IMG/VR virus record: IMGVR_UViG_2690316068_000002
Length of the DNA stretch: 64,000 bases
Strand: one strand, 5' to 3'
Source of the DNA: a virus
Lineage: Duplodnaviria > Heunggongvirae > Uroviricota > Caudoviricetes
Position numbers and translations under genes: made by a program. Under the pieces are notes generated by a model. The model was not told where the DNA came from, made no database searches, and was given only the letters and a program-made list of their open reading frames with translations. Positions within the stretch are counted from its first letter, which is position 1, and each line of letters begins with the position of its first letter. Below, in pieces: positions 6,685 to 50,321 of this stretch.

Positions 6685-6700
6685 ATAAGTAATTACTTAT
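6685..6700. promoter_or_regulatory. promoter-proximal palindrome ATAAGTAATTACTTAT (member of recurrent operator-like family)
   Basis: Perfect 16-bp palindrome 16 nt upstream of thyA start. Confidence 0.4.
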
Positions 6701-7786: not shown

Positions 7787-8929
7787 TTACAGGTCTGCAA
7801 ACTGGCTTAGAGAAGCCTTGTCCACGGTAGAATCGATCTGACCTACCAGATATGTGCTTTGCTCTGCCTCTTGTGGTGCAATTTGCAGTGTGTCGGTTAA
7901 CAACCACTTGTTCATCCAGACCAGCGGATCAGTGGTAACTTCTGGAAATAAAGCCTTCAGGCCAAGACGATTCATAGCCAGATTGGTTCGGTATTTTACA
8001 TAGGTCTTCAGAATATCCGCGTTTAAACCAATCATCGAACCGTCTTTGAAGAGATAGTCTGCCCAGTTCATTTCTTGTTCGGCGACTGATTTCATGGTGT
8101 CGTAAATGACGTTTTCTTCATCAGCAGCAATCTCTTTCCACAATAAACCTTCGCGACCGGTACGCATGAAGCGGATCATGCGTTCAGTTCCTTCGCAATG
8201 CAGAGCTTCATCACGGGCAATAAAGCGCATAATTTTGGTGTTACCCTCAAGCAACTTCCGTTCGCCAAAGGCAAACGTACATGCAAAACTTACATAGAAA
8301 CGGATCGCCTCAAGCGCATTAATGGACACTAACGTGCGGAAAAGCTGACGGTGCAAAGGATATGGCTCCCAGCCATATTCATTTACGTACAGACGCTCAA
8401 ATTCCTTCTCGCCTAACGACTGGCGATCGCAGGTCATCCCATAAAGCCTGTCATATTCAGCAGAGATACTGATGGCTCGGTTGATGATTTCTTCATCCGT
8501 AACAATACCGTCAAAAACAATACTCGGATCGTCCACCATGCCACGAATAATGTGGGTGTAGCTGCGGCTATGGATAGTCTCAGAGAAAGACCACGTTTCA
8601 ACCCACGTTTCCAGTTCAGGAATAGAGATAAGCGGCAGCAGAGTTGCGTTTGGGCTACGTCCCTGAACTGAATCGAGCAACGTTTGATAACGGAGATTAC
8701 TCAGGAAAATGTGGCGTTCGTGGTCCCGCAGCTTCGTATTGAAGTCGATGCGATCGCTCGAAATATCAACTTCTTCCGGCCGCCAGAAGAAAGACAATTG
8801 ACGTTCAATCAACTTTTCAAAATCACGGTATTTTTGTTGATCGTAACGAGCCACGTTGACAGATTGTCCGAGGAACATAGGCTCTTTGGTTGCATCATTA
8901 GCACCCAAACGGAACGTTGAATATGACAT
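7787..8929 (-). CDS. nrdB: ribonucleotide reductase class Ia small subunit
   Basis: N-terminus nearly collinear with E. coli NrdB ([41 protein letters not shown]); 380 aa. Confidence 0.92.
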
Positions 8930-9007
8930 GTGTTTTTCCTTTTTTGATGTGTTTAAACAAGTTGTTATCTTATGTGTTTAAACAAGGCTTACAAATCAAA
9001 GATAAGG

Positions 9008-9027
9008 TGGGGATATACCCCACCATA
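9008..9027 (-). terminator. rho-independent terminator after nrdA
   Basis: GGTGGGG-atata-CCCCACC followed on minus strand by TTATCTTTGATTTG. Confidence 0.5.
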
Positions 9028-14876: not shown

Positions 14877-15962
14877 TCACACAGCCTCCGAACTCTCCGC
14901 TTCGGTGAGGATTTCCTGACACAAAATATCCAACTTGCTCAGATCAAATCCGCCGTCAGTATCGTGGACAATCTTGCAATAAGCAGATACCGACTCTCCC
15001 AGGCTATCGATTTTGCTGGTTTCCGTTGTGCTTGCTGTCCCTTCCATCATTGATGACTTACGGATGAAGTTGCACACAACACCTTTTGCACCCATTGTTT
15101 TGAGGATGTTCTGGTACTTAATGCCTTCTTCGTCGTTCTCGATTACGGCGCGGAAACGCACGTAGTTGCCGCGAATTTGGTCATCAGCAACATAATCTTC
15201 CAGGTTAATGAATTTAGGCGCACTAGTTTCGTAGTGACTAAAACTGCCGTCCGGGTTTACGATCATGTAACCAGCCAGAGAGCCAACATCCCCCCAATTT
15301 TGATGGGTCAGTGCACCGACACTGATAACTCCAGGAATGACCTCTTTGTGGTTGTGGTAATGCCCACTAAGCACGAGACGAAAGCCGATATCCTTTAACT
15401 CCTGCGCATCAATACCGACGTCAGGCATTGTTGGAATGGCTTTGTTGATGGATGTATGGATAACAACGTCATGGTTATCACCTTCTACGCTCTTACGTAA
15501 CGTTTTCAGATCGCTGATAAGCTCCGCATGATTGTTACGCCAGCTAATCAGGTGGACAGTGACATCACCAATTTTTATTGAGTGTGGGCGTTTTCCACAT
15601 ACGATTACCACGCCGATAGAACTCAGCGATGCTGCTGCGTTGGCGCTATATACTGAATCGTTGGTTTCAAGATCGTGATTACCGGCCAGCATTACTACTG
15701 TCAGATCAAGCTCGTTGATAATCCACTTGTACGTTTCAGTTACGTAATGCAGAACAGAAGGGGACACAGTTCCTCGGACGTGAAATGTATCACCGGCAAC
15801 CAACATGTACTTACAACCAGCCTTCTTCATGGCGATGGCGGCTTCTTTCGTTGCTTCCAACTGTATTTCAAGTCTGGAGTTAAGCCCCTCAGCGTTCGTC
15901 GTGGAGAACGCATCCCATTTGTGGTAGTGGCAGTCAGAAATGACGCCGTATGGCAAAGTCAT
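14877..15962 (-). CDS. sbcD: SbcD/Mre11-like metallophosphatase nuclease
   Basis: ORF 14877..16058 trimmed to ATG at 15962 (AAAGGAAAAACAC upstream); DCHYH, GDTFH and GNHD phosphoesterase motifs. Confidence 0.75.
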   Translation of the reverse strand: MTLPYGVISDCHYHKWDAFSTTNAEGLNSRLEIQLEATKEAAIAMKKAGCKYMLVAGDTFHVRGTVSPSVLHYVTETYKWIINELDLTVVMLAGNHDLETNDSVYSANAAASLSSIGVVIVCGKRPHSIKIGDVTVHLISWRNNHAELISDLKTLRKSVEGDNHDVVIHTSINKAIPTMPDVGIDAQELKDIGFRLVLSGHYHNHKEVIPGVISVGALTHQNWGDVGSLAGYMIVNPDGSFSHYETSAPKFINLEDYVADDQIRGNYVRFRAVIENDEEGIKYQNILKTMGAKGVVCNFIRKSSMMEGTASTTETSKIDSLGESVSAYCKIVHDTDGGFDLSKLDILCQEILTEAESSEAV

Positions 15963-16075
15963 GTGTTTTTCCTTTGTGGTTATTTTGATACAGATATTAA
16001 GTGTGTTTGAGAGGCGAACAATCCAGATAACACGGCCATTAAGAATGTTCACAGACACATGATTATGGCAAATTC

Positions 16076-20428: not shown

Positions 20429-20604
20429 GCTGCCACCTCTTTGATTACATCAAATGCTGAATTAAATACGAGCACGATAGCCAAAGCGTTTATGACTACT
20501 TCGTTCACCGGGGAAAAGACTTTACGAATGACACCAGTGAAAATGCAGTCGATGACAAAAGCTATTGACACGATGAGTAACAAGTATTCAATAAAAATCT
20601 TCAT
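20425..20604 (-). CDS. small hydrophobic membrane protein (59 aa)
   Basis: Below the 60-aa ORF cutoff, found by manual translation: MKIFIEYLLLIVSIAFVIDCIFTGVIRKVF...; ATGA overlap with downstream gene. Confidence 0.35.
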   Translation of the reverse strand: MKIFIEYLLLIVSIAFVIDCIFTGVIRKVFSPVNEVVINALAIVLVFNSAFDVIKEVAA

Positions 20605-20643
20605 GATAGGTAGATACTAACTTATATAAATTTTACTGTAAAC

Positions 20644-20919
20644 TCACTCAAAAGTGCTGATGCTTAAAATACGCTCAAGATGTGCGGCATCTTCATCACT
20701 GATTTGTTGAGTCTCTTCTACGTACCAACAGTTGCCGTTATGCCAACAAACACCATCATCATCAACCATCACTGAATCAGCGTCATGACCTGTATATTCA
20801 ACGAGAATGCGCTGGATCAGCGCGTCAGTTTCTTCGTCGTTAAGGCCATCGGCTTTGACCATAAAAAGCGGAAACACGTCATAGACAGTGCTGGTAACGA
20901 TTCGAACTAAAACTCTCAT
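20644..20919 (-). CDS. hypothetical acidic protein
   Basis: 91 aa ORF; conserved TIR AAAGGAAAAACAC before ATG. Confidence 0.5.
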   Translation of the reverse strand: MRVLVRIVTSTVYDVFPLFMVKADGLNDEETDALIQRILVEYTGHDADSVMVDDDGVCWHNGNCWYVEETQQISDEDAAHLERILSISTFE

Positions 20920-20974
20920 GTGTTTTTCCTTTTGTGGTTAGTGTTTACTTATTTTGTTAGTTATGAATAGGCGA

Positions 20975-21400: not shown

Positions 21401-21450
21401 GTTTTCTTATCCTTTTAAACAAATTGTTTTCTTAATAAGATAATTGCGAT

Positions 21451-22325: not shown

Positions 22326-22526
22326 TTATTTCCCCTTTGCTTTGATTAATGAGTTGATAAACTTACGACCAGCAATAAGACCGATTACAGGAGCACCAAA
22401 ACCAACGATAACTCCAAACATGACGGCTAAATCACTCTTGGTAGAAATCAGCGACGGAACCAGTAAACCGTAGATGAGAGCCACTGAAAGGCCTGTGGCT
22501 ACTGCCAATAGATAGATTTTGATCAT
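22326..22526 (-). CDS. small two-TM membrane protein
   Basis: 66 aa, two hydrophobic helices; immediately upstream of SPFH gene. Confidence 0.45.
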   Translation of the reverse strand: MIKIYLLAVATGLSVALIYGLLVPSLISTKSDLAVMFGVIVGFGAPVIGLIAGRKFINSLIKAKGK

Positions 22527-22590
22527 GTGTTTTCCTATGTGGTTGTTATGCGAAAATAATAAGTAAGTGCTTATATATTTTCAAGAGATA

Positions 22591-22618: not shown

Positions 22619-23692
22619 TTACTCTTCTACTGACTCGGTGGGGTTGTCTTTTGCTCTTCGGTCGTCGATTGCCTGCAAAGCCGCAATGATTTCAGCCAGT
22701 GGCTTCTCCCGATACATCTCGACGATCTGCGATTTGGTGTATTTCTTGTCACCAATTTCAACTCGCCCGCTGGCGTTCTTTGGCAGGTATCCTTCTTCCA
22801 GCATGTACTCGACGAGCGATTCGATAACGTCGAGGCCACGAGTAGGATCGAAGTAGAATTTCCAGGTGCATTTGCCATACGGTGGTGCAACTTTGTTTTT
22901 GATGCATTCTGCGCCTACGTCCTGGCCGATCTTCTCTTTACCATCCTTCATCACCGATGCACCAAGACGGATACGTACAGAAGCGTAGAACTTCGGTGAA
23001 TCTCCACCTGGCGACGTAGTAGGGTCGCCAAACATTACACCGATTTTTGTGCGAACCTGATTCAAGAAGATGATGCAGGCGTTGTATTTGCGTGCCCACA
23101 AAGCCAGAGTAGGGAAGTTCGCACTCGTCGCACGAGCCAGTGCCGTATTGTCGTTCATGTTTAGCTGATCTTTGTCTTTGGCAGTGCCTTCAGCCATCTT
23201 TTCGAACTTCTCGGCTTTGGAGTTCGGAACCATAGACGCAAGAGAGTCAGCCACGATACAGATTGGTGCTGATTCGGGGATAAGCTCTTCATCACGAACC
23301 AATTTAAGTATTGTGCCGATCAACTCTACAGAGTCTTCGAAGGTATCTGGCTGCTTGTATACCCACTGACCGTCATCCTCATCTGCGTTCAGGCCATTGG
23401 CGACAGCCAGGCCAACGTCAAAACTGTTTTCATGATCGAGGAATACCGCCAGACCATCTTGTTTTTGAGCGGAGATCATCGCTGCTGTTGCAAGGAACGT
23501 TTTCCCTGCACTTGGAGGACCGAATACTTCGACGATACGACCACATGGGAAGCCGCCATCGTAACGACCAGAAATAGCTTTGTTTAACGGTGGAAAGCCT
23601 GTATCAATCCAATGAGTTACTTTCTGAATTTCGTCGTTGCTACCGATTTTCTTTTTCAGAGCAAGTGCCAGTGCGGATTTTCCTTTTGCCAT
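22619..23692 (-). CDS. recA: RecA-like recombinase
   Basis: Walker A GPPSAGKT; block LIFLNQVRTKIGVMFGDPTTSPGGDSPKFYASVRIRLG nearly collinear with E. coli RecA L2-loop region. Confidence 0.85.
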   Translation of the reverse strand: MAKGKSALALALKKKIGSNDEIQKVTHWIDTGFPPLNKAISGRYDGGFPCGRIVEVFGPPSAGKTFLATAAMISAQKQDGLAVFLDHENSFDVGLAVANGLNADEDDGQWVYKQPDTFEDSVELIGTILKLVRDEELIPESAPICIVADSLASMVPNSKAEKFEKMAEGTAKDKDQLNMNDNTALARATSANFPTLALWARKYNACIIFLNQVRTKIGVMFGDPTTSPGGDSPKFYASVRIRLGASVMKDGKEKIGQDVGAECIKNKVAPPYGKCTWKFYFDPTRGLDVIESLVEYMLEEGYLPKNASGRVEIGDKKYTKSQIVEMYREKPLAEIIAALQAIDDRRAKDNPTESVEE

Positions 23693-23694
23693 GA

Positions 23695-23967
23695 TCAGGC
23701 TCCTTTTGTTTCGTTGATTCGTTTTAAAGCGGCGGATTCATCGAATACAATCGCATCGTGGTTAAGGAGTCTGGATACACGAGCGAGGATTTTTACGACC
23801 TGCTCGCTGACTAATCCAAACTCGCGATCTGTCGCTTTCATTCCGGCAGCGCCTAGAATTGACGGCAGTGCGATGACAGCGTACTCACCGTGATAAAAGA
23901 CAATCTCTTTTGCCAGTTGGGCAGGGGTGGTTGTAGCGCCATTGATAATCGATTTAAGCATTAGCAA
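23695..23967 (-). CDS. hypothetical protein
   Basis: 90 aa ORF. Confidence 0.4.
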   Translation of the reverse strand: MLMLKSIINGATTTPAQLAKEIVFYHGEYAVIALPSILGAAGMKATDREFGLVSEQVVKILARVSRLLNHDAIVFDESAALKRINETKGA

Positions 23968-24905
23968 TACCTTTCGAATGGAAGAACAAACACTTCAAGG
24001 TCTTCAAGGAACGAACGGAAATTCAGCTCGTAGCACAGTTGCTCGAATGCTTTCACGTCACGATTGCCTTTGATTGTTTCGATTTCGGTAGGCGGAAACT
24101 TCGTCTCAATCAGGTTCATTAGCGTGATGTTTCTCTTGAACGCTTCGAGCATTCGACAGCCTGTTTTCTCGTTGAAGGCATTCTTCGCTAGTTTGTTGAA
24201 GGCGGTCTTATGACGCCCTTTATTAACCACGATTGAGCCGTCGTTGATGCCGCGTACCATCGTTGCGACACTTCCCCATTCATGCAGCAGCTCTTTCGCA
24301 CCGCCAGCACCAATGCCACCAACACCGCTAATGTTGTCCGAGTTATCGCCTTGTAATGCTTTTGCTTCCAAAAATGCGCGAGGCGTGGCGAATCCTGTCA
24401 GCTCCGCAAATTGCTCAAAATTAACCTGCTTGTTTTTGGCGTCTTCACGCAGGCTTACCCAGCTTACGTTTTCACGAACTAACTGAAGCCAGTCGCTATC
24501 GCCTGTTAACAGATAGATGTGTTCAACGGTTGGCTGCGGTGCCATGCGGGATACCAGCAGCCCGGCCAGATCATCCGCTTCTGCATCTTTTGCAATGAGT
24601 TGGGTAACTCCAAGCGCGGTCATCATTTTGAGGATGTATGGCTTCTGGATAGCAAAGCCTTCCTTCATCTTTTTCATATCAGGATCGTCGTCGCGATTTG
24701 CTTTGTAGTCCGGGTAAAAGTCGCGACGCTTGTCACTAAATCCATCCCAAAGAATCATAGGTCGGGCATGGAGGATGGAGGCATAACGACGGACGTTCTT
24801 AACAAAGCCGAAAGCAGCCTGTACTTCCATTTCGCCGTTGTGCAATTTGTCAGATTGTTGATGGTAATAACCCAGGCTATTGCCATCTACGAAGAGATAA
24901 TTCAC
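23961..24905 (-). CDS. flap endonuclease / 5'-3' exonuclease (FEN, T5 D15-like)
   Basis: VDGNSLGYY N-terminal motif and GVGGIGAGGAKEL helix-hairpin-helix motif; ORF begins with GTG at 24956, but GTG at 24905 with GGAAGGAA RBS leaves the upstream terminator outside the CDS. Confidence 0.75.
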   Translation of the reverse strand: MNYLFVDGNSLGYYHQQSDKLHNGEMEVQAAFGFVKNVRRYASILHARPMILWDGFSDKRRDFYPDYKANRDDDPDMKKMKEGFAIQKPYILKMMTALGVTQLIAKDAEADDLAGLLVSRMAPQPTVEHIYLLTGDSDWLQLVRENVSWVSLREDAKNKQVNFEQFAELTGFATPRAFLEAKALQGDNSDNISGVGGIGAGGAKELLHEWGSVATMVRGINDGSIVVNKGRHKTAFNKLAKNAFNEKTGCRMLEAFKRNITLMNLIETKFPPTEIETIKGNRDVKAFEQLCYELNFRSFLEDLEVFVLPFERYC

Positions 24906-24924
24906 CGGTACATTCCTTCCAAAA

Positions 24925-24950
24925 AGTAAGGCGTCCGTAGACGCCTTACT
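24925..24950 (-). terminator. rho-independent terminator (AGGCGTC...GACGCCT family)
   Basis: TAAGGCGTC-tacg-GACGCCTTAC followed on minus strand by TTTTTGG. Confidence 0.55.
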
Positions 24951-24965
24951 GGTCACGTAATGGGA

Positions 24966-25994
24966 TTACAGAGAGTCCAGCTCTCTCAGTAGGTCATCCA
25001 GACCTTCATCTTCCGTCGCAGATGCGGTTGCTACAGATGTCGCTGCGACTGCTTCAGACTCTTTGACTGATACGGCAACGGCAGCGGAACTTGCCTCTGG
25101 TTTAAATTCAGTTTCAACGGCACGGAGGATTTCTTCATCAACCAGACTGGTTGGTTCAGAAGCCGGTGTGTGCGCGGTTGCTACAGCCGTCGCTCCTTCT
25201 GTATGACCAGTGACAGAGCCAAATCCAGGTAGTGCCGCAGCCGATGTTTTCGCGGTTGAGGAAATTGCTGGTGCAGATGCTGCGGCAGTTGGTGCAGCGA
25301 TGCCAATCAGACGACCCATAGTGCGAACTGTCGACAGAAGACGAGTTTCATCAGCCTGATTTGCGTATGCGATCAGATCATGCTGGGTGTTCCAGAATTT
25401 ATCTTCGATATCGCCTTTGTAGACTTTACGCTTAGGCGAGACGTCATATTTGGTATCGCGACCAGAGCCAGTACGTTTAATCAGGAATGCGTAGCCTTCC
25501 TCTTTGCTCAGTGGATTGCCGATATCATCAGCGATGTCTTCGGTGATTGCTTTGCAGATATCATCGAATACAGTAGACGGCAGCTCGATTAACTGGCATT
25601 TCTCAGCATCTGCGAAATCCTCACGAGCAGAAAGAATGCCGTTGACCAGGTAGCGAGGAGTGGCACGCATTTGACCGATGCGTTCTTCCATTGCTTTGTT
25701 ACCCTTGTGACGAGCGCGACCTTCCATAACCATTTCGCATAGCTGACAAGCGCGACCGTGAGTATGTTGCTCACAAATATAAGCGTTGGTTGCTTCTTTA
25801 CCTTCCTCGTTCTGATACTTAACGTAGTGCATACCGAAAGTCTGGAAGAACTTACCGTTTGGGTCGTCTTTATTCGGGAAGATGCGGATATAGTTGACGC
25901 CGTCTTTTAAGCGAGTCAGATCAACGTTGTTGCCACGTTTGGCGGCAATGTCTTCACGAGTTTTGTTAAGCAAATCAAGTAATGTCTTAGACAT
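24966..25994 (-). CDS. putative ssDNA-binding protein (gp32-like)
   Basis: Cys/His cluster CEQHTHGRACQLCE, Ala/Ser/Thr-rich linker and acidic C-terminal tail EDEGLDDLLRELDSL typical of SSBs. Confidence 0.5.
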   Translation of the reverse strand: MSKTLLDLLNKTREDIAAKRGNNVDLTRLKDGVNYIRIFPNKDDPNGKFFQTFGMHYVKYQNEEGKEATNAYICEQHTHGRACQLCEMVMEGRARHKGNKAMEERIGQMRATPRYLVNGILSAREDFADAEKCQLIELPSTVFDDICKAITEDIADDIGNPLSKEEGYAFLIKRTGSGRDTKYDVSPKRKVYKGDIEDKFWNTQHDLIAYANQADETRLLSTVRTMGRLIGIAAPTAAASAPAISSTAKTSAAALPGFGSVTGHTEGATAVATAHTPASEPTSLVDEEILRAVETEFKPEASSAAVAVSVKESEAVAATSVATASATEDEGLDDLLRELDSL

Positions 25995-26111
25995 GTGTTT
26001 CTCCTTGTTGTGATTTGGCCGATGGCGCTATGCGCGTTGGGCTTTCGTTCATTCGTGGCTCTTTCGAGCTGTTAAATGATAGATCAGTACTTACTTATTA
26101 TCTATCAAAAA

Positions 26112-27646: not shown

Positions 27647-27975
27647 TGATGCCCGCCAATTGGCGGGCATCTGTTCTCTGTAAAGGTGTCTGGCATCGTC
27701 TGGTTCGTTAACGTTTACTAAACCAATGGTGACAAAAATTAGTTATCTTTGAAAAATAAAGGTTGCATGAAAAGAAGGGGTATGCGTTAATAGCATCGTT
27801 GGTTTGCAAGACAGACCTTATGTAAGCAGTTTTAGTAAAGCAGTCTCAGTTCAGTGTTATCTTCTGATTTCCCTTCTTCGTGAGTCTCCTCCTTAAGTGC
27901 CTAAGTAAGTCCCAATCTATACAGATCAAATTCTCGCCGCACTATGTGGCTCACAAAATTAAGAAGGTAATATCT

Positions 27976-28191
27976 ATGTCTAATAAAATGACTGGTTTAG
28001 TAAAATGGTTTAACTCTGATAAAGGCTTTGGCTTTATTTCTCCTGCTGATGGCAGTAAAGATGTTTTTGTACATTTTTCGGCAATTCAGAGTAATAATTT
28101 CCGCACTTTGGAAGAAGGCCAGCAGGTCGAATTCTCTATCGAGAATGGGGCTAAAGGCCCAGCAGCAGCAAATGTCGTTGCTCTAAGTTGA
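27976..28191 (+). CDS. cold-shock protein (CspA family)
   Basis: [71 protein letters not shown] is near-identical in pattern to E. coli CspA/B/G; RNP1/RNP2 motifs present; AAGAAGG RBS; long leader. Confidence 0.9.
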
Positions 28192-28461
28192 TTCAACGCT
28201 GATGATCCTCATTTCTACAATAACGAAGACGGTGTAAGCCTGAGTGGATAGATTTGTAGGATTGTACAAGTTGAATAAATTAGCATGGTAAGGCCATGCT
28301 AATTAAATCGACACAACGGCCAGTTTATTCCATAAAAGTGAATTGCCCATTGTGGCGAAATGCGGGGTTGCCGCATGAATAGTCAAAGGCAGAAGCTAAC
28401 TGCCGGCATGGCAAAACAAAGTGCGTAAGAGGAGTGACTTCCTCAACAAGCGCCATAATTC

Positions 28462-31400: not shown

Positions 31401-32013
31401 GCTCTATTTTCAGTGCGCTGGCTACTTTCATCGCTCGGACGTTAATCTGGTCGTAGAATGGGGTAGGGTGCGGATAAACCACGCTATAGAAGTTGTCTTT
31501 CCCGCCCGCTGTAATCAGTGAGCTTATGATTTTTGCAAAATCGTTGCGTTGGAACACGCTACCGATGTCGGAAGTGAGCAGGATGATGTTGCCTTTGGCA
31601 TATGTAGAAACCAACTGTTCGAGCGAGAGACGCGGTACAAAGTAGAACTGTTCTCGTGTGTTGGCCACCGTCATTAGTTCGCAGATGTCGCGATATCCTT
31701 GCTCATTTTTAATTAGAGCGGTAAACGAGTAGTTACGTCCCCGCTCTAATGATTCCATACATCTCATAGATTCTTTAGCAAGTTTAGCCCGGTGCTCGTA
31801 TGTGGGATCATCAACGATATTTAGTTTCACACCACAAATAACCGCCATGTCGTCACCAGCGGCACGTTGTAGTGGAATAACGCTCGCAATATTCATGCTA
31901 TCTGCTGAAATTACAGCGGTGTAGCCAGCTTCTCTGGCAATCTTCACCGCGTTTTCTGCTTTTAGAGCCGACTCCCCAAGTGAGAAGTCAGTTCGAACCA
32001 TCAGTGCCTTCAT
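28495..32013 (-). CDS. dnaE: DNA polymerase III alpha-like replicative polymerase (DnaE family)
   Basis: 1172 aa; block GYFLMVRDLMNHSRETGIPVGPGRGSSAGSLVAWCIGITNVDPIRHGLLFERFINPER matches the DnaE palm-domain signature; N-terminal PHP-like region. Confidence 0.85.
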   Translation of the reverse strand: MKALMVRTDFSLGESALKAENAVKIAREAGYTAVISADSMNIASVIPLQRAAGDDMAVICGVKLNIVDDPTYEHRAKLAKESMRCMESLERGRNYSFTALIKNEQGYRDICELMTVANTREQFYFVPRLSLEQLVSTYAKGNIILLTSDIGSVFQRNDFAKIISSLITAGGKDNFYSVVYPHPTPFYDQINVRAMKVASALKIEPVAFYPAYYESIDDADIKDIAHMVTNNIKIDQPHRLRIPHQRDNAINGRRHLLEALKAFSVRMDVPVTAAMASTTQDSIIDACTWRWHELPPALPKMADDEPATLMKLAVAGLRKRLTTKEFGYTPPASENRVYVERLKYEMNTLTRLGFCGYFLMVRDLMNHSRETGIPVGPGRGSSAGSLVAWCIGITNVDPIRHGLLFERFINPERLDLPDADLDFSQARRHEVIEYLNERYGEDYVAGIPNFTYLGAASALRDTARIYGVESADMAVSKELKNVEDDSLPLEELREQLASLDKYATKYPDAFNAACKLQSLMRGFGRHAAGMIVAGVPLTERTPVERRGDARCIAFDKRYCEAMGLIKLDVLGLATLDLLDSAKRYIKENTGEDINLDAISLEDRKVLDGFAAGYTQGVFQLESGPMRKLLKDLGGGIEPMSFKTVVATTALFRPGPIQSGMLDDYVSVAKGFMTPESLHPVLDELTAETNGVILYQEQTMNATRLLAGFTMAEADGVRSAIGKKNMEKMKSMGEKFIVQAQAGWIDVELEDGTTQRIHRAEHFKCEDGTLKTVEEALEHGAKLPINAVRVTASHPGLSEMKAKEIWTAFEKNGAYQFNKSHSVAYSLISYQSMWLKTHYPAEFFAAALTILGEDKHQGLVKDALTYGIRVLPPDVNVSSNRIEIRTLEDGSQVLYAPFSAVKGCSENGCQAIMRAREKVGGKFESLAQFEEAVEKRACNSRVRESLQKVGAFASIEPGSLPATDPERLRDQAELMGNLVIDAVKASRPFEMNPKRSAEINVLMTRMAAEMGLGDELIRPNIGIKPKIMIILDNANGNDARTGYFMENGYDDFKAKLLTAGDLRMGDLYVTGVCKKVKDKEKDYTKDEIGQFTDFMREEINLVRPTYILTCGSRSTALFNNKSKPSDLIGRKEYFPELDATVFYGFNPNILYFRPEEGERLEAILADIAETINK

Positions 32014-32197
32014 GTGTTTTTACCTTTCTGGTTTTTTTGATTTTGTCATTTGGGAAGCCTACGAACTTCCCATGCATCGAAATCGCAACTTCTTTTGCTG
32101 ATTGGTGACAATCGGGCTTGTCTGGACACACCAGACAAGCCTTACCAGTTTCAGAAGCAGCGATAAGAGAGCCGAAACATCCTTTACGCACGATCAA
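31988..32197 (-). CDS. small Cys-rich hypothetical protein
   Basis: 69 aa; CLVCPDKPDC motif; ATGA overlap with upstream AAA ATPase gene. Confidence 0.35.
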   Translation of the reverse strand: MIVRKGCFGSLIAASETGKACLVCPDKPDCHQSAKEVAISMHGKFVGFPNDKIKKTRKVKTHEGTDGSN

Positions 32198-33429
32198 CCA
32201 AATATTTTTTGAACAACTTCACGAGCCGCTTGTGCAGAAGCTGAAGGGAGTTTGTTAATGAAAGAACGCTCAATACCTGTCACAAAGTCGCCTCGCATCA
32301 TTCCAATCTTGGCCGACAACAAAAGTTCACGAGGGCCAATTGGCTGACTGATAAGGTGTTCTTCGTATCCATCGCGAACGATACCGGCAAACTTAACCAT
32401 CTTTTCTGCGTATTCATCCACGATACCGGCATTTATCAACATGTTGATCTCTGCCTCTTTGCTCATGTATTTCACATTCGAAACGATGCCAAAACGCGAA
32501 AAGTTCGCGGCGTTCTGGATGTTTGTACCCTGGTACAAGCCGGTTTCATCACCAGATCCGTTCGTGTTGCCAGTGCCAATGAAAGCAAACCGTTCATGCG
32601 GAGTAATGCGACGCCATTCTGGAGTCGCCTCTTTGATGACCAACGCTTCACCTTCCAGCACTGGCTGATACACGCCAAGAATCTGTGGAAACGCAAAGTC
32701 GTATTCATCCGCGAGGTAAACCCAGCCATGCTTCATTGCGAGCGCAAGCAAGCCAGGCTCGAAATACGTAGAGCCATCACGCGCCAGAATTTGTCCCGTA
32801 ACATGAGCCTCTTCCATTGATGCTGTATGTTGGGCACGGATTAACGGACGATTGAGCAAAGCACATAGTTGTGTAGGCAATGAAGATTTGCCTGTTCCTG
32901 CATGACCCCACAAATAGCCAGGTATGCCAAGTTCAAGCATCATGAAAATGTCTTTGATCAGTTCGAAGTCGCCATATACGTATCCCTTCTTCACTTCTGG
33001 AACGAACTCTGGAAACGGCGTATTGACGTTGACGCTAACCATGAGCGGCGTCCCACGTTTTGTTCCGAGTTCTTTCACCGTTACATTTAGCAGTTCGTGA
33101 GCTGCGACCAGATCTGTCTTGTACTCAACTGTGCCTGTGTAGCCTGGGCTACTGGTCACGCCAGATGATTTGGCCATTTCGCTTTTTTGCTCGGCACGTT
33201 TAGCTTGAATTGCATCAAGTGCCTTTTTCGATAGCGTTGGCTCATCTGGAAACTGTGTTGTGTACATTTTCAGTACGGTGTCAGGATCGGCATCTTTTAC
33301 TGACTCAGGAATGCCCTCGCAATTACCATTGGCAACATGGGACTTAAAATAGTGAAATGATTTTCCGCACCACTTGCAAACAAGGTAATCAGAAGGATTT
33401 TTTTCATTTTGCAGTGCAGTAGTAGTCAT
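32194..33429 (-). CDS. MoxR/CbbQ-type AAA+ ATPase (CobS-like)
   Basis: Walker A GHAGTGKSS and Walker B VYLADEYD in MoxR-like arrangement. Confidence 0.7.
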   Translation of the reverse strand: MTTTALQNEKNPSDYLVCKWCGKSFHYFKSHVANGNCEGIPESVKDADPDTVLKMYTTQFPDEPTLSKKALDAIQAKRAEQKSEMAKSSGVTSSPGYTGTVEYKTDLVAAHELLNVTVKELGTKRGTPLMVSVNVNTPFPEFVPEVKKGYVYGDFELIKDIFMMLELGIPGYLWGHAGTGKSSLPTQLCALLNRPLIRAQHTASMEEAHVTGQILARDGSTYFEPGLLALAMKHGWVYLADEYDFAFPQILGVYQPVLEGEALVIKEATPEWRRITPHERFAFIGTGNTNGSGDETGLYQGTNIQNAANFSRFGIVSNVKYMSKEAEINMLINAGIVDEYAEKMVKFAGIVRDGYEEHLISQPIGPRELLLSAKIGMMRGDFVTGIERSFINKLPSASAQAAREVVQKIFG

Positions 33430-33524
33430 GCGTTTTTCCTTTGTTTTCTAATGAGCGTTCAACTTCTTATATAAATATATCATTATCTATCGTAAGTGGT
33501 TACTTATCATTAAGGCTGTTTTAT

Positions 33525-35633: not shown

Positions 35634-35731
35634 GGCTAATCCTTTGTTATGAAAACAAATTATTTACTAGTGTGTTTAATGTAGCACTGCGCGAACAGGG
35701 AACTAAGCCATTCGCGCAGGGAGAAGAGGGG

Positions 35732-36122: not shown

Positions 36123-36164
36123 TTACAACCCTAACCTTTGATGTAATATCGGTAAGCACTTACC
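36123..36164 (+). promoter_or_regulatory. sigma70-like promoter with operator-like palindrome at the predicted start site
   Basis: TTTACA-16 nt-TAATAT followed directly by GGTAAGCACTTACC (36151-36164), upstream of the HTH regulator. Confidence 0.5.
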
Positions 36165-36195: not shown

Positions 36196-36582
36196 ATGTC
36201 TGATAACAAGATTGAATTTATAGAAAGTCGCTACGCTGCTTTTATCGCAGGGTTGATTGAATCCTCACCTATGAGCCAGGCCCAGATAGCCAAAACAATT
36301 GGGTATAAAAACGCCAACAACCTTTCTTTAATTAAAAGCGGCAAAATTCCTTTGCCTATCGATAAGGTTCGTCCGCTGGCGCTGGCACTGGGCATTGAGC
36401 CAAGTCGTCTTATGATGATGGTGCTGGAAGAACGCCAACCCGAACTCGCAGCATTTTTATACAAAGAAGGCACTGCTCCTCTTAACGAGGACGAAAAACA
36501 GGTTCTTGCTGCATATAACGAGCGATTCGGTAAAGAGAAAGGCGCATCACAAAAGGTTGTTGAGGCCATAAAGTCTCTATGA
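36196..36582 (+). CDS. helix-turn-helix (XRE-like) transcriptional regulator
   Basis: HTH-like segment SQAQIAKTIGYKNANNLSLIKSGK; 128 aa; convergent with recombinase gene. Confidence 0.6.
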   Translation: MSDNKIEFIESRYAAFIAGLIESSPMSQAQIAKTIGYKNANNLSLIKSGKIPLPIDKVRPLALALGIEPSRLMMMVLEERQPELAAFLYKEGTAPLNEDEKQVLAAYNERFGKEKGASQKVVEAIKSL

Positions 36583-37680
36583 AAAATTTACACGAATAAG
36601 CTCTGTTGATAGACGATCTCCCTTAAATTTGTGGTCAATTTCGTCTAAATCCGGTTGCTCTACGATTGATGCGATGTACGTCGAGAAACTTTCTAAGGCG
36701 TCTCGCATCTCGTCCATATAATCGTGCCGGTCGTAGACCCGATCTATCCCCTCAAGACTGTGGTTCATGATTTTACGTGATACCTCCTGGCTTATGCCTA
36801 ATGCTGGGAAGTAACTACGCGCAGTACGGCGCAAATCTCGGGGTGTAAATGGCTCAAGCTCCATCAGTTCTGGTCGTTCCAGAATACGACGTAATGCCTG
36901 GGCTATTGCCACTTTAGACATAGGAAGGTCTTTCCCGATTTTTTTATTCGAAGGCACGAGCCACTGGCTGTCTTTACCATATTCGAACAACTCTTCAATA
37001 CAAGTGCGCATTAATGAGCTTAAAGGCAGAGAATGCTCACGGGCAGATTTGTTCCTCTTGCCTTGATTCCAAACCCCACGCTTAAGATTGAACTCACTTT
37101 TTTTAGCCCGCAGTACTTCGTCAGGTCGTCTTGCGGATACAAGACATAGCCTGGCCGCCCATTTTGTACCAGCACACACATTGAAGTAGTCCCATATATT
37201 CCAGAACACCCATACCTCTGCGTCGGTCAGCTTCCGCTCGCGAGGTGTGGGCTTTGCGCCACCGGCAACTTTGTTAAGTGACATATCGTTTAACGGTGAC
37301 ACGTCTATCATCCCCTGGAAGGCGCACCAGCTAAGGAACTGCTTCATCAGAGAGAAAACGCGGCGGCCCATAACAATTTTGCCATCCAGTATTAGTGGGT
37401 TGACCAGTTGGTTCACCATGAACCTATTAATGTCACTTACTTTTACATCGGCAATGTGCGGCAAAACATGTATCAAAATACAATGAACAGCGATCTCTGG
37501 CCGACGTCTGGTTATCAGCAGAGATAAGCGAGTGAATAACATGAATGCGTCCGAGAATCTCATGTCATTGCTGACCTGGGAGATCATAACGGCCTGCATT
37601 TGAGATGCTCTTTCGAGATACTCTATCGCCTCTTTTGAGGTGTTCTCCGCAGCGCGTGCTCTGTCAAAGCTATTTTTCAT
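36577..37680 (-). CDS. tyrosine site-specific recombinase (phage integrase family)
   Basis: C-terminal catalytic domain with RPDEVL (Arg I), box II variant FTPRDLRRTA, and HSLEGIDRVYDRHDY containing candidate Tyr nucleophile. Confidence 0.8.
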   Translation of the reverse strand: MKNSFDRARAAENTSKEAIEYLERASQMQAVMISQVSNDMRFSDAFMLFTRLSLLITRRRPEIAVHCILIHVLPHIADVKVSDINRFMVNQLVNPLILDGKIVMGRRVFSLMKQFLSWCAFQGMIDVSPLNDMSLNKVAGGAKPTPRERKLTDAEVWVFWNIWDYFNVCAGTKWAARLCLVSARRPDEVLRAKKSEFNLKRGVWNQGKRNKSAREHSLPLSSLMRTCIEELFEYGKDSQWLVPSNKKIGKDLPMSKVAIAQALRRILERPELMELEPFTPRDLRRTARSYFPALGISQEVSRKIMNHSLEGIDRVYDRHDYMDEMRDALESFSTYIASIVEQPDLDEIDHKFKGDRLSTELIRVNFS

Positions 37681-38263: not shown

Positions 38264-38310
38264 ATAGAGTCCTTTCAAGTGAGTAAGTGTCGTGACTATA
38301 GCTAAAATGA

Positions 38311-38330
38311 ATAGGTGAGTCATTACCTAT
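38311..38330. promoter_or_regulatory. promoter-proximal palindrome ATAGGTGAGTCATTACCTAT
   Basis: Member of recurrent palindrome family. Confidence 0.4.
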
Positions 38331-39702: not shown

Positions 39703-39707
39703 GCAAA

Positions 39708-42017: not shown

Positions 42018-43340
42018 TCATTCTTTATCTCCGATTCGATCTTCTGTATCGCGTAAGCAACGCGGCCATTTCAGTCGTGGGTGGCGTAAGCTGCCGTCCG
42101 GTGTTTTCTCGTGACAATGAACCTCGACAATACGACCACGGTACTTCTCTTTGTTGTTCCAGATCTCGTCCAGATATTTATGCTTAATGCCGCTCGCACG
42201 AACGATGACGCCGTTTTCAAGACGAATAACAATTTTTCCAAGTGTGTTGGCAAAACCAGAGTCCGGGTCGCCCGGCTCAAAGTCGATAATTTCACCATCT
42301 TCTGAATCTTCGTCTTTTAACTTCCACCAGCTGCGGGTACGTTTAAACTCGTAAACAGAGTTCGGATCTTTGCCCATCTCCCCTTCTTCGTTATCGTCCA
42401 GGCGTTTCATGAAGCGTTCGATGAAGTCTTCGTGGCTATGGATGATGTAGAACGGATGTAGGTGAATGTCTTGCGCGTAGTCTTCACTGCGATCGTTTTT
42501 GAACAACGCCACGAGAATAGCCAGGCGCTCTTTCAGCTTCATACCTGTCTTTGCATACTCTTTGGATTTAGCCTGTGCCCGCCATTCCGGTAGGAAGAAG
42601 TCGAAAACATGATAAATAGCGCCAATTGCCTGCACGTTCTTTTTGCGCAATGCAGATACGGACTGGTTAAATGAACCGGCTGTTCCTTCACCATCGAAGA
42701 AGATGTGTTTGTGGCCTGAAAGTTTGCCTAATTCGAGCATGGCTGGCTTTAGGTGATCGAGAGACGTGATTGGATTACCAGTACGAGAAAGGAAGTTCAC
42801 CTCTTCCTCGTCAACAATAACCTCACAAATTACTCGCAAACCATCGAGCTTAAGGCTGCCAATCATCGGCCATTTGGCTTTAGGATTTGGCTTGAAGGGG
42901 TATTTGTCGCCTTTTTCTTTATACGGTGACGCCAGCTGCACCTCAAATTTCGGAATGGGATTTTCAAAAACCTTGTTGCATAGGCTAATCCCAACGCCAG
43001 CTTTCGGATCTTTTAAGAGGAAACGACGGAACACGTCCTGCCCATCGGCGCACATTGACGCCACGATAGACTCAACAGCAGCTATTGCTGCGTTCCCCGT
43101 CAGCTCGCGAGAGGCCAGCTTATTCAGTATATCAATGGCTTTTTCGTCACTTGGGACGGACTCACTAAGCGGCTCTGCCACTTTGTATTTCTTTACCCCA
43201 AAACGGATGAAAGGGTTGAGCATCAATGAAACCATGCTTTGCTCGAAGTCATCCATGTTGGCCAATGCCTCTTTTTTTGCATTGGTTCCCATAGCTTTCA
43301 TTTCGTCCAGCTTATGCTTAAGTGCGATCAACTTTTTCAT
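42018..43340 (-). CDS. ATP-dependent DNA ligase
   Basis: Nucleotidyltransferase motif I SLKLDGLRV (KxDGxR) with active-site lysine; 440 aa. Confidence 0.7.
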   Translation of the reverse strand: MKKLIALKHKLDEMKAMGTNAKKEALANMDDFEQSMVSLMLNPFIRFGVKKYKVAEPLSESVPSDEKAIDILNKLASRELTGNAAIAAVESIVASMCADGQDVFRRFLLKDPKAGVGISLCNKVFENPIPKFEVQLASPYKEKGDKYPFKPNPKAKWPMIGSLKLDGLRVICEVIVDEEEVNFLSRTGNPITSLDHLKPAMLELGKLSGHKHIFFDGEGTAGSFNQSVSALRKKNVQAIGAIYHVFDFFLPEWRAQAKSKEYAKTGMKLKERLAILVALFKNDRSEDYAQDIHLHPFYIIHSHEDFIERFMKRLDDNEEGEMGKDPNSVYEFKRTRSWWKLKDEDSEDGEIIDFEPGDPDSGFANTLGKIVIRLENGVIVRASGIKHKYLDEIWNNKEKYRGRIVEVHCHEKTPDGSLRHPRLKWPRCLRDTEDRIGDKE

Positions 43341-43819
43341 TGTTGTTTTGCCTCCATATGTTGATCGATTTGCTCATGTGTTTCTTTTGTTGTTTCTTCA
43401 AGCAACGCCGCATACACGTCAGTGATCGCTGTTTGTGATGTGGTGCTCTTCTTAACCATGCCATTAATCGTTACACTGTCACGTTTTCGTTTTATAGTTC
43501 TGGCTTGTTTATTCCGTTCTTCAACCTCCTTAATGAGCGCGGTCATATCTTCGAAATACAGAGATTCTCCTTTACGAATCTCTTCAACCATCATTTTTAA
43601 CGCCTTGCATTTGCCTGCTTTGATAGCGGTTGCGCACGACTGGAATGAAGTTCGAGGAAGACGGTTTTCTTTGAAGGCAAGAATGGTGTGCTGGCAAACG
43701 GAGTAGCTGCAATATGCCGACTCACCGTTTATCTTTACTTCCTCACAACGAAGTGAATAACCATTATTTCCTGAAATAGAGGGGATTTTTGACAAATCAG
43801 CTTTCACAACTACCGCCAT
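43337..43819 (-). CDS. hypothetical protein
   Basis: 160 aa ORF. Confidence 0.5.
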   Translation of the reverse strand: MAVVVKADLSKIPSISGNNGYSLRCEEVKINGESAYCSYSVCQHTILAFKENRLPRTSFQSCATAIKAGKCKALKMMVEEIRKGESLYFEDMTALIKEVEERNKQARTIKRKRDSVTINGMVKKSTTSQTAITDVYAALLEETTKETHEQIDQHMEAKQQ

Positions 43820-44731: not shown

Positions 44732-45913
44732 TTATGATAGAGCCTTAATGCCCAAAACCTTGCTTTGCAACTCCAACTGTTTGGTATACGGTTTTGCCCG
44801 ATAATAGGCTTTGATAATTTGTTCTGGCGTTGCACCGCCCGGGTCGAGTCCTTCCTCACCCAAACACGCAACTTTGACATTAAGACCGATACTGGTCAGT
44901 CGCCTGGCTGCGGCCATAGTGTTGCGTATAGCTTGCTTTTCACTATCCCACATCATGATCACATTACGTAACCCACGCGCCTTGAGCGTCAGGAACGCGC
45001 CTAACTGATCTTCTGCATCCTGAGTGGTGTTACCAGATAGATGCATCCCGAACGTTCCTATTGGTTCCACGTAATCACGTAATGTTTCTTCGTCAAAAAT
45101 AGCTCGTTTAACCCCCATAACATCGAACGCCCCCTCACAGACAACTACAGTCTGTTTGCCGACTGCATTATGGCCGTTGTAGAGAAACTTACCTGAAGCT
45201 GGAAGTTGCATAGGAAAGAGGTAGCGGCGTTCTGCTGTACCGGTAATGTCTCGTCCCTGAAATGTCTTCATTACCCCATCCAGATCGTAAACCGGTATCA
45301 GTATTCGCATATCGAATATCTGTCCTTTAACCTGATCTGTATACGGATCTACATAAGCGTGCTTGCCTTCGACGCAGTATCGTAGGTCAAAATACTTTGC
45401 CATTTCAGGTGATATGTTTCGTTCAACCAGATAGTCTGGAAGACGGCCATCTATAGGAAGTTCGTAATGACGAGGGAGTGCAAGTGGTCCCTCTAACTCG
45501 ACTGTGCTTGCAAGCACTATCTCTTCTTTCTTTGGTGCCCACCCCTGGGAAAGAAGGGCGTTCTGCACATATTCCTCGAACTGTCGTCGTGATTTGCCGC
45601 TGTAGTGCTTGAGGAAGACCAGCTTATTGAACTGAATCTCTTCGGGATGATCACCAGCAAAGCATTTGCCGACGCCACTGGTCAGATTGAAATATACCTT
45701 CCAGTTGGAGCTGCCGCATACCGGACATTCCTTGATATTCACTTCACGACCGCGAGCACTCACGCCTCCACGTCGATAAACGATACCTTCAGTATCCAAC
45801 CATTGTTCAAAATCTAATTCGGCAATTAGCTCTTTCAGCTCGCTCACGATAATTCCACTTTTAACAGGCAATATTGTGACCAACCTAAATGTTGATATAA
45901 CATAAAGGCTCAT
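44732..45913 (-). CDS. DNA primase (zinc finger plus TOPRIM)
   Basis: ORF 44732..45985 trimmed to ATG at 45913 preceded by conserved AACCACAAAAGAAAAACAC leader; CPVCGSS...C zinc ribbon; TOPRIM VVVCEGAFD. Confidence 0.7.
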   Translation of the reverse strand: MSLYVISTFRLVTILPVKSGIIVSELKELIAELDFEQWLDTEGIVYRRGGVSARGREVNIKECPVCGSSNWKVYFNLTSGVGKCFAGDHPEEIQFNKLVFLKHYSGKSRRQFEEYVQNALLSQGWAPKKEEIVLASTVELEGPLALPRHYELPIDGRLPDYLVERNISPEMAKYFDLRYCVEGKHAYVDPYTDQVKGQIFDMRILIPVYDLDGVMKTFQGRDITGTAERRYLFPMQLPASGKFLYNGHNAVGKQTVVVCEGAFDVMGVKRAIFDEETLRDYVEPIGTFGMHLSGNTTQDAEDQLGAFLTLKARGLRNVIMMWDSEKQAIRNTMAAARRLTSIGLNVKVACLGEEGLDPGGATPEQIIKAYYRAKPYTKQLELQSKVLGIKALS

Positions 45914-45961
45914 GTGTTTTTCTTTTGTGGTTTGGCAAAAGAAAAGTTGTTTCACAAATGA

Positions 45962-45994: not shown

Positions 45995-47335
45995 TTAGGT
46001 AACGTCTAAGATTCGCTCAATGAAACGCATTTGTTCGAGGTTTTGTTTAACGCGAATGCTGATCCCACCCTGCTGGTTACGTGAACCAGCAAAGTAGAGA
46101 CGAGCCTCTCCTTTCGCTTCTTCTTCTTCGGTTTTGTTGATCGTTATTACCAGGTCAGCAATACGTACTTTTTCGATGTTATCGGCGGCGTGCATCATTG
46201 TGGCAACTTCTGACGCGCCACCTTCACGGTTTGTCTGCGATGCCGTGATCCCAGCAACGTTATGCTTGTCATAAAGAGCACGTAAATCGGTGTAGATACT
46301 ACGAATGTTGGCGCGATCATCACGAAGGTCATAACTGGCACGCATCAAATCTGCGTAGTCGACAACAACCATGTCAGGCACCATGCCGTTGGCTTTCATG
46401 CTGTTAAGCATACGGTCCAGATCTGCCGGTGACATACTTCCTGACGGACGCTCAACAACCCACAAACTACCAATCCCCTTAGAGGCTCCCAACTCTGCCA
46501 ACTTACGATGAACTTCATCGCGCCGTTCCACCAACTTGGACATTTCCGTCTCCGACAATCTTGCATCAAAACGGTCGGACAAAATGTTGGTGTGAACCTC
46601 CAGCGAGAGATACAGAACATTGTAGCCAGCAAGCGTTGCGTTTATGGAAAACTCACCCATTGCGGTCGATTTACCGGATTTAGCGAACCCCATGAAGAGC
46701 ACCATTTCACGCTTCGCCCAGCCTTTTTGGTACAGCAACCTATCGAGCAGAGGGAGTCCAGTTGTAATGCTGTTTGGCACATACTCCTCTGAGGCCTCAT
46801 ATTCACGCGCTTTCAGTCGCTCACTTGCTGAGGTGTAGTAGTCATAGATTCCGGTTGCTTCGTTCGAGCCTATCTGCTGAACCTTGGCCATGATTGCCAT
46901 CGCCCCCTGAAAGTCGCCCTTCTCTTTCAGTTCAGCAGCCTTAATCAGAGCATCATCAAACGCTACGCTTTTTGCGAAGGTTGATACCTGGTCAACCATG
47001 TACGAGGTATCGGACAATTTTTCTGCAAGGATGCGCTTAAACGCAGCAACAACATCGGCGAATAGTTCCTCACGGATAGTCTTATCGCGTTTCGCACGCT
47101 TAAGCATATCCAGAATTGCAGATGAAGAGGGCGCGCTCTTGTACATACGGTAATAGCCCGAAACCATATTAACCAATATGGCATTGGCCGCATTGGCAAA
47201 TTGGTTAGGCACAACCAGATCTCCCGCACGAGTAAGAAACTCGTGATCACGACAAAAATATGCCGTCAGTCTGTTCTGGAAATCTTCATCAAACTCTTCG
47301 GACAGCCCGCGTCCTGTATGGCAAAGTTCGGTCAT
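45995..47335 (-). CDS. DnaB-like replicative helicase
   Basis: Walker A GFAKSGKST in RecA-like C-terminal domain; 446 aa; adjacent to primase. Confidence 0.75.
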   Translation of the reverse strand: MTELCHTGRGLSEEFDEDFQNRLTAYFCRDHEFLTRAGDLVVPNQFANAANAILVNMVSGYYRMYKSAPSSSAILDMLKRAKRDKTIREELFADVVAAFKRILAEKLSDTSYMVDQVSTFAKSVAFDDALIKAAELKEKGDFQGAMAIMAKVQQIGSNEATGIYDYYTSASERLKAREYEASEEYVPNSITTGLPLLDRLLYQKGWAKREMVLFMGFAKSGKSTAMGEFSINATLAGYNVLYLSLEVHTNILSDRFDARLSETEMSKLVERRDEVHRKLAELGASKGIGSLWVVERPSGSMSPADLDRMLNSMKANGMVPDMVVVDYADLMRASYDLRDDRANIRSIYTDLRALYDKHNVAGITASQTNREGGASEVATMMHAADNIEKVRIADLVITINKTEEEEAKGEARLYFAGSRNQQGGISIRVKQNLEQMRFIERILDVT

Positions 47336-47378
47336 GTGCTTTCCTTTGTTTTTTAAACAAATTGTTTTCTAGTATTAG

Positions 47379-50140: not shown

Positions 50141-50321
50141 TGGAGAGTTCCCTTTGCGTATATAATTATCGTCTGAAACAACTTGTTTTCTTATATGTGA
50201 TATAGCCTAAATGCCTACGGCTGCGGTGTAAAGGTTAAATGGTAGGTTGTGATTAACAATTGGCAATCATAGCTTGTATTTGTCTGTTGAAAAAAGTAAC
50301 AATGACCTCTATATTACAAGT

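Follow-up and report, generated by a model that had tools for sequence, protein, structure and literature searches.

Upstream of nrdB (positions 8921-8990) in a 64,000-nucleotide (nt) viral contig, IMG/VR record IMGVR_UViG_2690316068_000002, a short leader abuts the start codon and a palindrome, AAACAA-N-TTGTTT (AAACAANTTGTTT), lies further upstream, and both motifs recur in front of other minus-strand genes. The question raised by this locus is whether they represent one shared expression signal for a co-regulated gene class, as a preliminary description of the sequence had suggested. Analysis of the whole contig (the window) and its relatives leads us to favour, with some reserve, two independent cis-acting signals, in which the leader would be a lineage-specific translation-initiation region and the palindrome a DNA operator for a repressor.

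The window is 98-99% identical to the Escherichia phage-plasmid Cyrano of the SSU5 family, which is the phage-plasmid pLF82 of E. coli LF82; a 5-kb piece across the nrdB locus shares 98.8% identity with Cyrano and ~76% with Salmonella phage SSU5 and Klebsiella phage-plasmids. The plus strand of the window corresponds to the minus strand of Cyrano and extends from the tail genes to RNase H, and gene names were lifted over from the Cyrano annotation. The rest of Cyrano, 100 kb of SSU5, Klebsiella pJN2-26 and Yersinia pMT1 served as comparison genomes, and chance expectations were obtained from shuffles or Markov models. Counts of the 9-mer NNNNNNATG were dropped as a control, being confounded by codon-usage words such as TTGATGATG.

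Distribution of the two motifs

The leader motif AAACACATG occurs eight times on the minus strand of the window and never on the plus strand, a number not reached in any shuffle (mean 0.84, maximum 4). Seven copies are the starts of genes, namely nrdB, sbcD, gene 59, gene 56 and those for a gp32-like single-stranded-DNA-binding protein (SSB), DNA polymerase III alpha and primase, and the eighth (43377) opens a 19-codon upstream open reading frame (uORF) that overlaps the start of the ligase gene. All eight lie on the coding strand, and no copy falls within coding sequence. One-base variants stand at two further starts, those of the helicase gene (47335, AAGCAC) and a cobS-like gene (33429, AAACGC). 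Genome-wide, 11 copies were found in Cyrano (0.63 expected), 10 in SSU5 (0.44 expected) and nine in pJN2-26, all on the coding strand, and 1.06 Mb of SSU5-like viral contigs contain 186 copies preceding ~43 different N-termini. Outside the lineage, 83 kb of unrelated contigs gave a single copy and 50 kb of phage P1 gave none. Duplication of one gene start, which the preliminary description had named as a way of explaining the likeness away, is excluded, because the leaders are alike only up to the ATG, beyond which the genes encode unrelated N-termini; further upstream, too, the sequences differ.

At up to one mismatch, the palindrome occurs five times in the window (shuffle mean 0.51, never five). 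All five copies are intergenic, ~13-36 nt upstream of minus-strand starts, and neither motif lies inside coding sequence, the other objection that had been foreseen. Cyrano holds nine exact copies and 18 at up to one mismatch (0 and 0.8 expected), SSU5 11 and 20, respectively, pJN2-26 17 and pMT1 six. The extended motif is present in 120 viral contigs, of which 109 are SSU5-like and 11, with one copy each, are not.

Within the window, nrdB and the helicase gene are the only two of nine leader genes at which the motifs coincide; the other seven lack a palindrome, and the genes behind the palindromes at 21417, 35653 and 50176 lack the leader. The two are separate signals, a translational and a transcriptional layer within the same early-gene programme. 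The earlier proposal of a shared expression signal thus survives in that both motifs are genuine and non-random against shuffles, and fails in that they do not form one composite. All eight leader sites that it listed were recovered on the minus strand where it had placed them. Its palindrome list needed correction: the copy put at 50182-50199 lies at 50176-50188, and what had been counted as two copies at 8946-8987 comprises a single complete palindrome (8955-8967) and, in the upstream copy of a 14-nt direct repeat, TTGTTTAAACACAT, a half-site. Two sites, the palindrome at 35653 and the leader variant at 33429, had been missed (Table 1). That the leader genes form a co-regulated class is a plausible proposal. 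Both signals are real, lineage-wide, conserved by selection and of ordinary kinds.

Anatomy and conservation of the leader

The leader consensus consists of an A/C-rich stretch from -20 to -13, a purine block A-R-R-R-R-A (AAGGA, AAGAG, GGAGA or AGGGA), the hexamer AAACAC and the ATG. Start-codon use at these genes was deduced from open reading frames and orthologues. AAGGA, GGAGA or AGGTA stands 7-8 nt before the ATG in seven of nine leader genes, and the primase and ligase-uORF leaders have only AAAAGAAA as a Shine-Dalgarno sequence. Together with the SSU5 ligase uORF, these two make three leaders that keep the motif otherwise intact without a GG-containing Shine-Dalgarno. In the 30 nt upstream of the start, G+T amounts to 25% at leader genes vs 48% at other genes (p=4e-6), and the folding energy over 63 nt is -6.2 vs -9.3 kcal/mol (p=0.01). 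Every leader gene (9/9) stands behind a gap of at least 43 nt, compared with 25 of 46 other minus-strand genes (p=0.009), suggesting that the leader marks fresh ribosome loading rather than coupling; of the 34 minus-strand genes preceded by an intergenic gap of 40 nt or more, nine use it. The genes concerned serve mostly replication, recombination and nucleotide metabolism, and none is structural or lytic.

Conservation was evaluated by pairing window genes with their SSU5 and pJN2-26 orthologues. Identity at positions -6 to -1 was 92% (77/84) for leader genes vs 64% (300/468) for the others (p=9e-8), and no excess was observed in the Shine-Dalgarno region (67% vs 71%) or at positions -30 to -15 (53% vs 59%). 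At nrdB, the stretch between palindrome and start has been rewritten across the orthologues, including an indel, with AAACAC persisting. This excess at -6 to -1 and the retention of AAACAC amid a rewritten flank indicate that the hexamer is under purifying selection, beyond a generic preference for an A-rich spacer, as judged from the aligned orthologues.

The leader also bears on gene calls. The primase ATG at 45913 is in frame and 66 nt upstream of the GTG (45847) annotated as the start in Cyrano, and is probably the true start of the window gene. In SSU5 and pJN2-26, the primase leader opens a 22-23-codon uORF with an ATGA overlap with the primase start, and SSU5 has a 12-codon equivalent of the ligase uORF, which ends one base into the ligase ATG. 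The arrangement of uORF and ligase gene suggests translational coupling.

A/C-rich unstructured leaders work with ribosomal protein S1, and strong E. coli sites such as that of lacZ (CACACAGGAAACAGCUAUG) are of a similar kind. The best reading of the leader is a cis-acting, lineage-specific initiation optimum placed on an unstructured A/C-rich 5' stretch. It would combine this G+T-poor stretch with a purine-rich Shine-Dalgarno (AAGGA, AAGAG or GGAGA) and a fixed AAACAC spacer, would be used where ribosomes load afresh behind intergenic gaps, and would raise or standardise initiation, probably aided by S1. Two short uORFs bearing the leader would pass ribosomes on to the primase and ligase genes.

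The palindrome in its promoter cassette

Alignment of 152 distinct copies gave a cassette of ~70 nt with the consensus TTtt.t.CCTTtTct...ttG.gAtAAT-aAcaCCAAcAAG-AAAACAAnTTGTTTAa, followed by Shine-Dalgarno and ATG. Its elements are, in order, a predicted sigma-70 promoter of the extended -10 type, whose -35 is weak, the flank CCAACAAG and the palindrome, with a conserved TGnGATAAT 13 nt upstream of the palindrome. The symmetry of the palindrome is 6-N-6, extending to 7-N-7 (AAAACAA-N-TTGTTTA) in the consensus of the 152 cassettes. Assuming that transcription starts 7 nt past the predicted -10, the palindrome covers ~+8 to +20; in the window cassettes of the helicase gene, nrdB and gene 58 it is nearer the -10, at ~+1 to +8. 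A second palindrome is present in 26 of the 152 cassettes exactly 51 bp upstream, ~five helical turns away and over the -35. This second copy often lies right behind a terminator hairpin, as observed for 18 of 39 upstream-type copies.

Given the dyad, its place in a promoter cassette, the 51-bp phasing and the lack of an RNA fold, it is most likely that the palindrome is the operator of a dimeric repressor. Such a family-wide repressor would shut down early, par and terminase promoters while the element persists as a plasmid. A published list of the Cyrano genes that are expressed in the LF82 lysogen (PMC9928086) includes none of those downstream of the cassettes, which fits repression in that state.

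Alternative readings and candidate binders

Several points weigh against this account of two independent signals. For the leader, no generic ribosome contact is known to read an AAACAC-like sequence, so that a hexamer conserved at 92% may reflect a dedicated reader acting in trans instead of optimisation in cis alone. For the palindrome, the +8 to +20 position depends on a predicted -10, and a simple consensus promoter scan of the window flagged neither the helicase nor the parA cassette. The left flank CCAACAAG is conserved asymmetrically, for which a symmetric dimer gives no account; it may be an initial transcribed sequence or a third half-site. The candidate binders CY123, CY29, CY117 and CY45 are leads drawn from domain content and genome presence. 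The operators are kept in pMT1 although it has no CY29, and SSU5 has no CY45.

The alternative for the leader is an RNA operator, in which AAACAC-AUG would be read by a translational regulator of the phage, either an FljA-family protein or the gp32-like SSB, defining a post-transcriptional regulon of replication genes analogous to RegA or gp32 control in T4. The far stronger conservation of the hexamer than of other spacers and of its own Shine-Dalgarno region speaks for such a reader, as do the three leaders that keep the motif without a GG Shine-Dalgarno and the membership of the SSB gene itself in the leader class. In addition, all 12 SSU5-like phage records matched, and pMT1 as well, encode a homologue of FljA over its full length (PF03614, E=1e-80, with a weak Hfq-like match), and FljA has been described to block translation of fliC mRNA (PMC2652032). 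However, the 5' untranslated region (UTR) of E. coli K-12 fliC, the target of the FljA family, resembles neither leader nor palindrome, and the leader looks like ordinary strong E. coli ribosome-binding sites of the lacZ type. A tblastn search of the window, Cyrano, SSU5 and pJN2-26 with T4 RegA, of low sensitivity, gave no homologue (no match better than E=3.4), and no trans-encoded antisense RNA complementary to the leader was found in Cyrano, where the matches were the leaders' own opposite strands. We consider an RNA operator unlikely, though worth keeping in view. Its more specific form, in which an FljA-family repressor would read AAACAC-AUG and, beneath the DNA operators, add a further level of control that silences a translational regulon of replication, recombination and nucleotide-metabolism genes during plasmid life, is improbable.

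For the palindrome, an alternative is a set of partition-adaptor sites bound by CY29, which would be a ParG/omega-like ribbon-helix-helix protein and would autoregulate parA, exert global silencing and perhaps serve as a dispersed centromere-binding protein, comparable to omega of pSM19035 or KorB of RK2. An exact palindrome is indeed present in the parA promoter region of the window, SSU5, pJN2-26 and pCAV1099-111. CY29 has no RelE/ParE signature and a weak match to the ribbon-helix-helix regulator aCcr1, is at least 90% identical in more than 700 plasmids and belongs to the genes expressed in the LF82 lysogen. Two of its segments, SRTMS and FTRSDVIRAAI, stay unchanged even where overall identity falls to 48%, paralleling the invariance of the operator. 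Its assignment as a ribbon-helix-helix protein follows from sequence patterns, and the AlphaFold model has a predicted local distance difference test score (pLDDT) of 63, with no Foldseek fold match and no PDB sequence match. A single site upstream of parA is also unlike the repeat arrays found at typical type Ib centromeres. Furthermore, pMT1 lacks parA as well as CY29, yet its six palindromes are intact. This presence/absence pattern weighs weakly against CY29 and CY37, because pMT1 is young and operators could persist without their binder. A distant CY29 homologue in pCAV1099-111 (51% identity) accompanies the same palindrome, so that no covariation test is possible with it, and a CY29-like match on a 252-kb Klebsiella plasmid proved to be an SSU5-like fragment. 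Presence/absence across genomes is better fitted by CY123, an 88-amino-acid LexA-DNA-binding-domain-like winged-helix protein that occurs in every motif-bearing genome; its gene lies outside the window, just upstream of the double palindrome site that precedes the terminase operon. The partition-adaptor reading is unlikely.

CY45, a helix-turn-helix (HTH) protein adjoining the integrase, is the master repressor suggested in the LF82 paper. Binding of the palindrome by CY45 is unlikely, since, besides its absence from SSU5, it shares only 56% identity in Klebsiella, and another palindrome, GGTAAG..CTTACC, stands in the promoter of its own gene in the E. coli as well as the Klebsiella elements. 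It is more likely that CY45 reads the latter motif.

Leader and cassette could also be mobile linker modules spread by recombination and kept passively, like those of T4-type phages. The cassettes are indeed ~70 nt of near-identical sequence, are densest among small hypothetical open reading frames (Cyrano 80-98 kb) and in several cases follow terminator hairpins, as noted for the upstream-type copies. However, the leader stands before core genes whose positions are conserved in three lineages, the motifs are present at orthologous positions in diverged relatives, and there is no relation among the coding sequences that follow. Only the hexamer is kept within the leader while the flanks have diverged, which argues for selection and not recent copying, and this explanation is very unlikely.

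A 5' UTR RNA hairpin acting on stability, processing or translation, to which the location of the palindrome downstream of the predicted -10 and beside the Shine-Dalgarno in canonical cassettes would be suited, is made highly improbable by a folding energy (-0.3 to -0.7 kcal/mol) equal to that of shuffles and by the lack of covariation (45 uncompensated and 0 compensated deviations, and 0 of 2 double variants compensatory, with power limited by the filter of at most one mismatch), and is further disfavoured by copies upstream of the -35 in fixed 51-bp phase and by the lack of any Rfam family matching the palindrome, the only cis-regulatory Rfam match in the window being cspA, elsewhere.

Related systems, neighbouring features and significance

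The favoured arrangement of a translation-initiation leader and a repressor operator can be compared with several known systems. Like the palindromes, the C1 operators of P1 are many single sites scattered over a plasmid-prophage. Each C1 operator (annotated are Oref, Omat, Ossb, Oc4 and OrepL) overlaps a sigma-70 promoter that serves an early or auxiliary operon, such that one repressor silences many units, as would be the case here. The P1 C1 operator is an asymmetric 17-mer, ATTGCTCTAATAAATTT, whereas the SSU5-family site is a 13-15 bp perfect dyad within a repeated promoter cassette, in fixed register and often paired at 51 bp. The 50 kb of P1 DNA with annotated C1 operators contains neither the leader nor the palindrome; no search was made for a C1 homologue. 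KorB with its OB sites in IncP plasmid RK2, and omega of pSM19035, are partition proteins that act as global repressors. A 13-bp 6-N-6 palindrome with about a dozen promoter copies, including the partition operon, is a KorB-like feature; the sequence is different, and CY119/120, the proteins of this element with a ParB domain, show its N-terminal part alone. The promoter-early stem-loop (PeSL) cassettes of T4-type phages, reportedly described by Arbiol and colleagues in 2010, are short repeated units too, and combine a hairpin with an early sigma-70 promoter before small open reading frames in a plastic region. In contrast to PeSL, the cassettes here have a putative operator downstream of the predicted -10, and the cassettes also precede core genes (helicase, nrdB, parA and terminase).

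As to the leader, the CAA repeats of tobacco mosaic virus omega work in E. coli, and A/C-rich enhancers are read by S1. The leader resembles these in being A/C-rich, G/U-poor and little structured, with a modest or absent Shine-Dalgarno, and differs from such enhancers as described in having a specific AAACAC fixed beside the AUG and selected across lineages. With T4 RegA it shares a short conserved sequence by the AUG of many early DNA-metabolism genes, in a phage with gp32-, UvsY- and UvsW-like genes. RegA recognises an AU-rich consensus (AAAAUUGUUAUGUAA) that extends across the AUG, unlike the leader motif, which is A/C-rich and lies wholly upstream of it.

Table 1 Positions of leaders, palindromes and associated features in the window.
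Feature	Position	Strand	Remarks
nrdB leader ATCAAAAAAGGAAAAACAC and ATG	8927..8948	minus	start codon 8929-8927
Palindrome TAACAACTTGTTTA, one mismatch to AAACAANTTGTTT	8955..8967		26 nt upstream of nrdB ATG; kept in SSU5 and Klebsiella pJN2-26
14-nt direct repeat TTGTTTAAACACAT	8947-8960 and 8972-8985	minus	25 nt apart; upstream copy is a lone half-site
GC-rich hairpin GGTGGGGTATATCCCCACC then TT, terminator-like	9006..9024	minus	between nrdA and the nrdB control region
sbcD leader AACCACAAAGGAAAAACACATG, consensus copy	15960..15981	minus	start 15962
Hypothetical gene 59 leader AACCACAAAAGGAAAAACACATG	20917..20939	minus	start 20919
Palindrome, exact	21417..21429		upstream of hypothetical gene 58; terminator hairpin and TTGGAC-17-TATCTT before it
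Small membrane-protein gene 56 leader AACCACATAGGAAAACACATG	22524..22545	minus	start 22526; downstream of TTGAAA-17-TATTAT
gp32-like SSB gene leader TCACAACAAGGAGAAACACATG	25992..26013	minus	start 25994
DNA polymerase III alpha gene leader AACCAGAAAGGTAAAAACACATG	32011..32033	minus	start 32013
cobS-like AAA gene variant leader GAAAACAAAGGAAAAACGCATG	33427..33448	minus	AAACAC in SSU5 and Klebsiella
Palindrome, one mismatch	35653..35665		upstream of cobT-like gene 47
Ligase-uORF leader AACAACAAAAGAAACACATG, without GG Shine-Dalgarno	43318..43394	minus	19-codon uORF 43377-43318; ligase start 43340
Primase leader AACCACAAAAGAAAAACACATG	45911..45932	minus	ATG 45913
Helicase leader AAAAACAAAGGAAAGCACATG, variant AAGCAC	47333..47353	minus	
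Palindrome, exact	47355..47367		abuts helicase leader; just downstream of TTGATC...TAATAC
CY29 gene, after parA	49113-49472	minus	labelled RelE/ParE toxin in Cyrano, no such Pfam domain; disordered basic N-terminus
Palindrome, exact	50176..50188		36 nt upstream of parA start (50140)

A second dispersed palindrome, TAAGTAnnTACTTA / GGTAAGnnCTTACC, has six matches in the window vs 0.21 expected, at positions including 1851-1862, 6686-6699, 22560-22573, 36152-36163 and 41182-41195. The genes that it precedes are dam, thyX and gene 56, the last with the motif between -35 and -10, and, in both the E. coli and Klebsiella elements, the integrase-adjacent HTH repressor gene. It resembles the -22 box (AAGTnACTT) of P1 late promoters and is probably the operator of that repressor. 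The pair of integrase and HTH-repressor genes (36196-37680) is kept in the E. coli, Klebsiella and pMT1 elements and missing in SSU5. One genome announcement calls SSU5 virulent, and a lytic SSU5 through loss of this module is consistent with both. Gene 60 has no Shine-Dalgarno at its start (20604-20630, minus strand); instead TATAAGTTAGTATCTACCTATC, conserved in the window, SSU5 and Klebsiella, abuts its ATG and may be a promoter giving a leaderless mRNA. An FljA-family protein (repressor of phase-1 flagellin translation) is encoded at 100780-101301 of Cyrano, outside the window, and is a core gene of the SSU5-like records examined and of pMT1.

Elsewhere, the region 38000-40430 of the window includes a stretch that diverges from Cyrano, where Cyrano genes 41 and 43 are absent and a plus-strand open reading frame of 429 amino acids (38413-39702) takes their place; a minus-strand tRNA cluster (Ser, Thr, Tyr and Asn, 39882-40428) lies beside this stretch. 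In the region 22619-24956, the recombinase gene is 1074 nt in the window and SSU5, and the recA-like coding sequence of Cyrano is annotated as 2340 nt (L001 10066-12405); the additional ~1.3 kb is perhaps an intein or inserted element. A full-length match to the cspA thermoregulator 5' UTR (187 bits) accompanies a cold-shock protein gene at 27798-28215 on the plus strand, a cargo gene opposite in strand and adjoining hicAB.

Phage-plasmids of the SSU5 type are common in E. coli, Salmonella, Klebsiella, Enterobacter and Citrobacter; a single core protein matches 797 plasmid records, and published reports place CTX-M-15 or other resistance genes on some of the elements. The literature searched gave no account of how this family controls the choice between plasmid life and lysis, and neither leader nor palindrome was found described for it in the searchable literature. 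Together, the two signals provide a map of early promoters and independently translated genes, and the leader improves gene calls, as for the primase start and the uORFs before ligase and primase. The leader is a compact, selection-tested ribosome-binding module, whose fixed spacer raises the question of what reads positions -6 to -1, and the 15-bp operator could be used as bait for its repressor. The conserved hexamer and the putative repressor of the palindrome are thus both worth experiment in this family.

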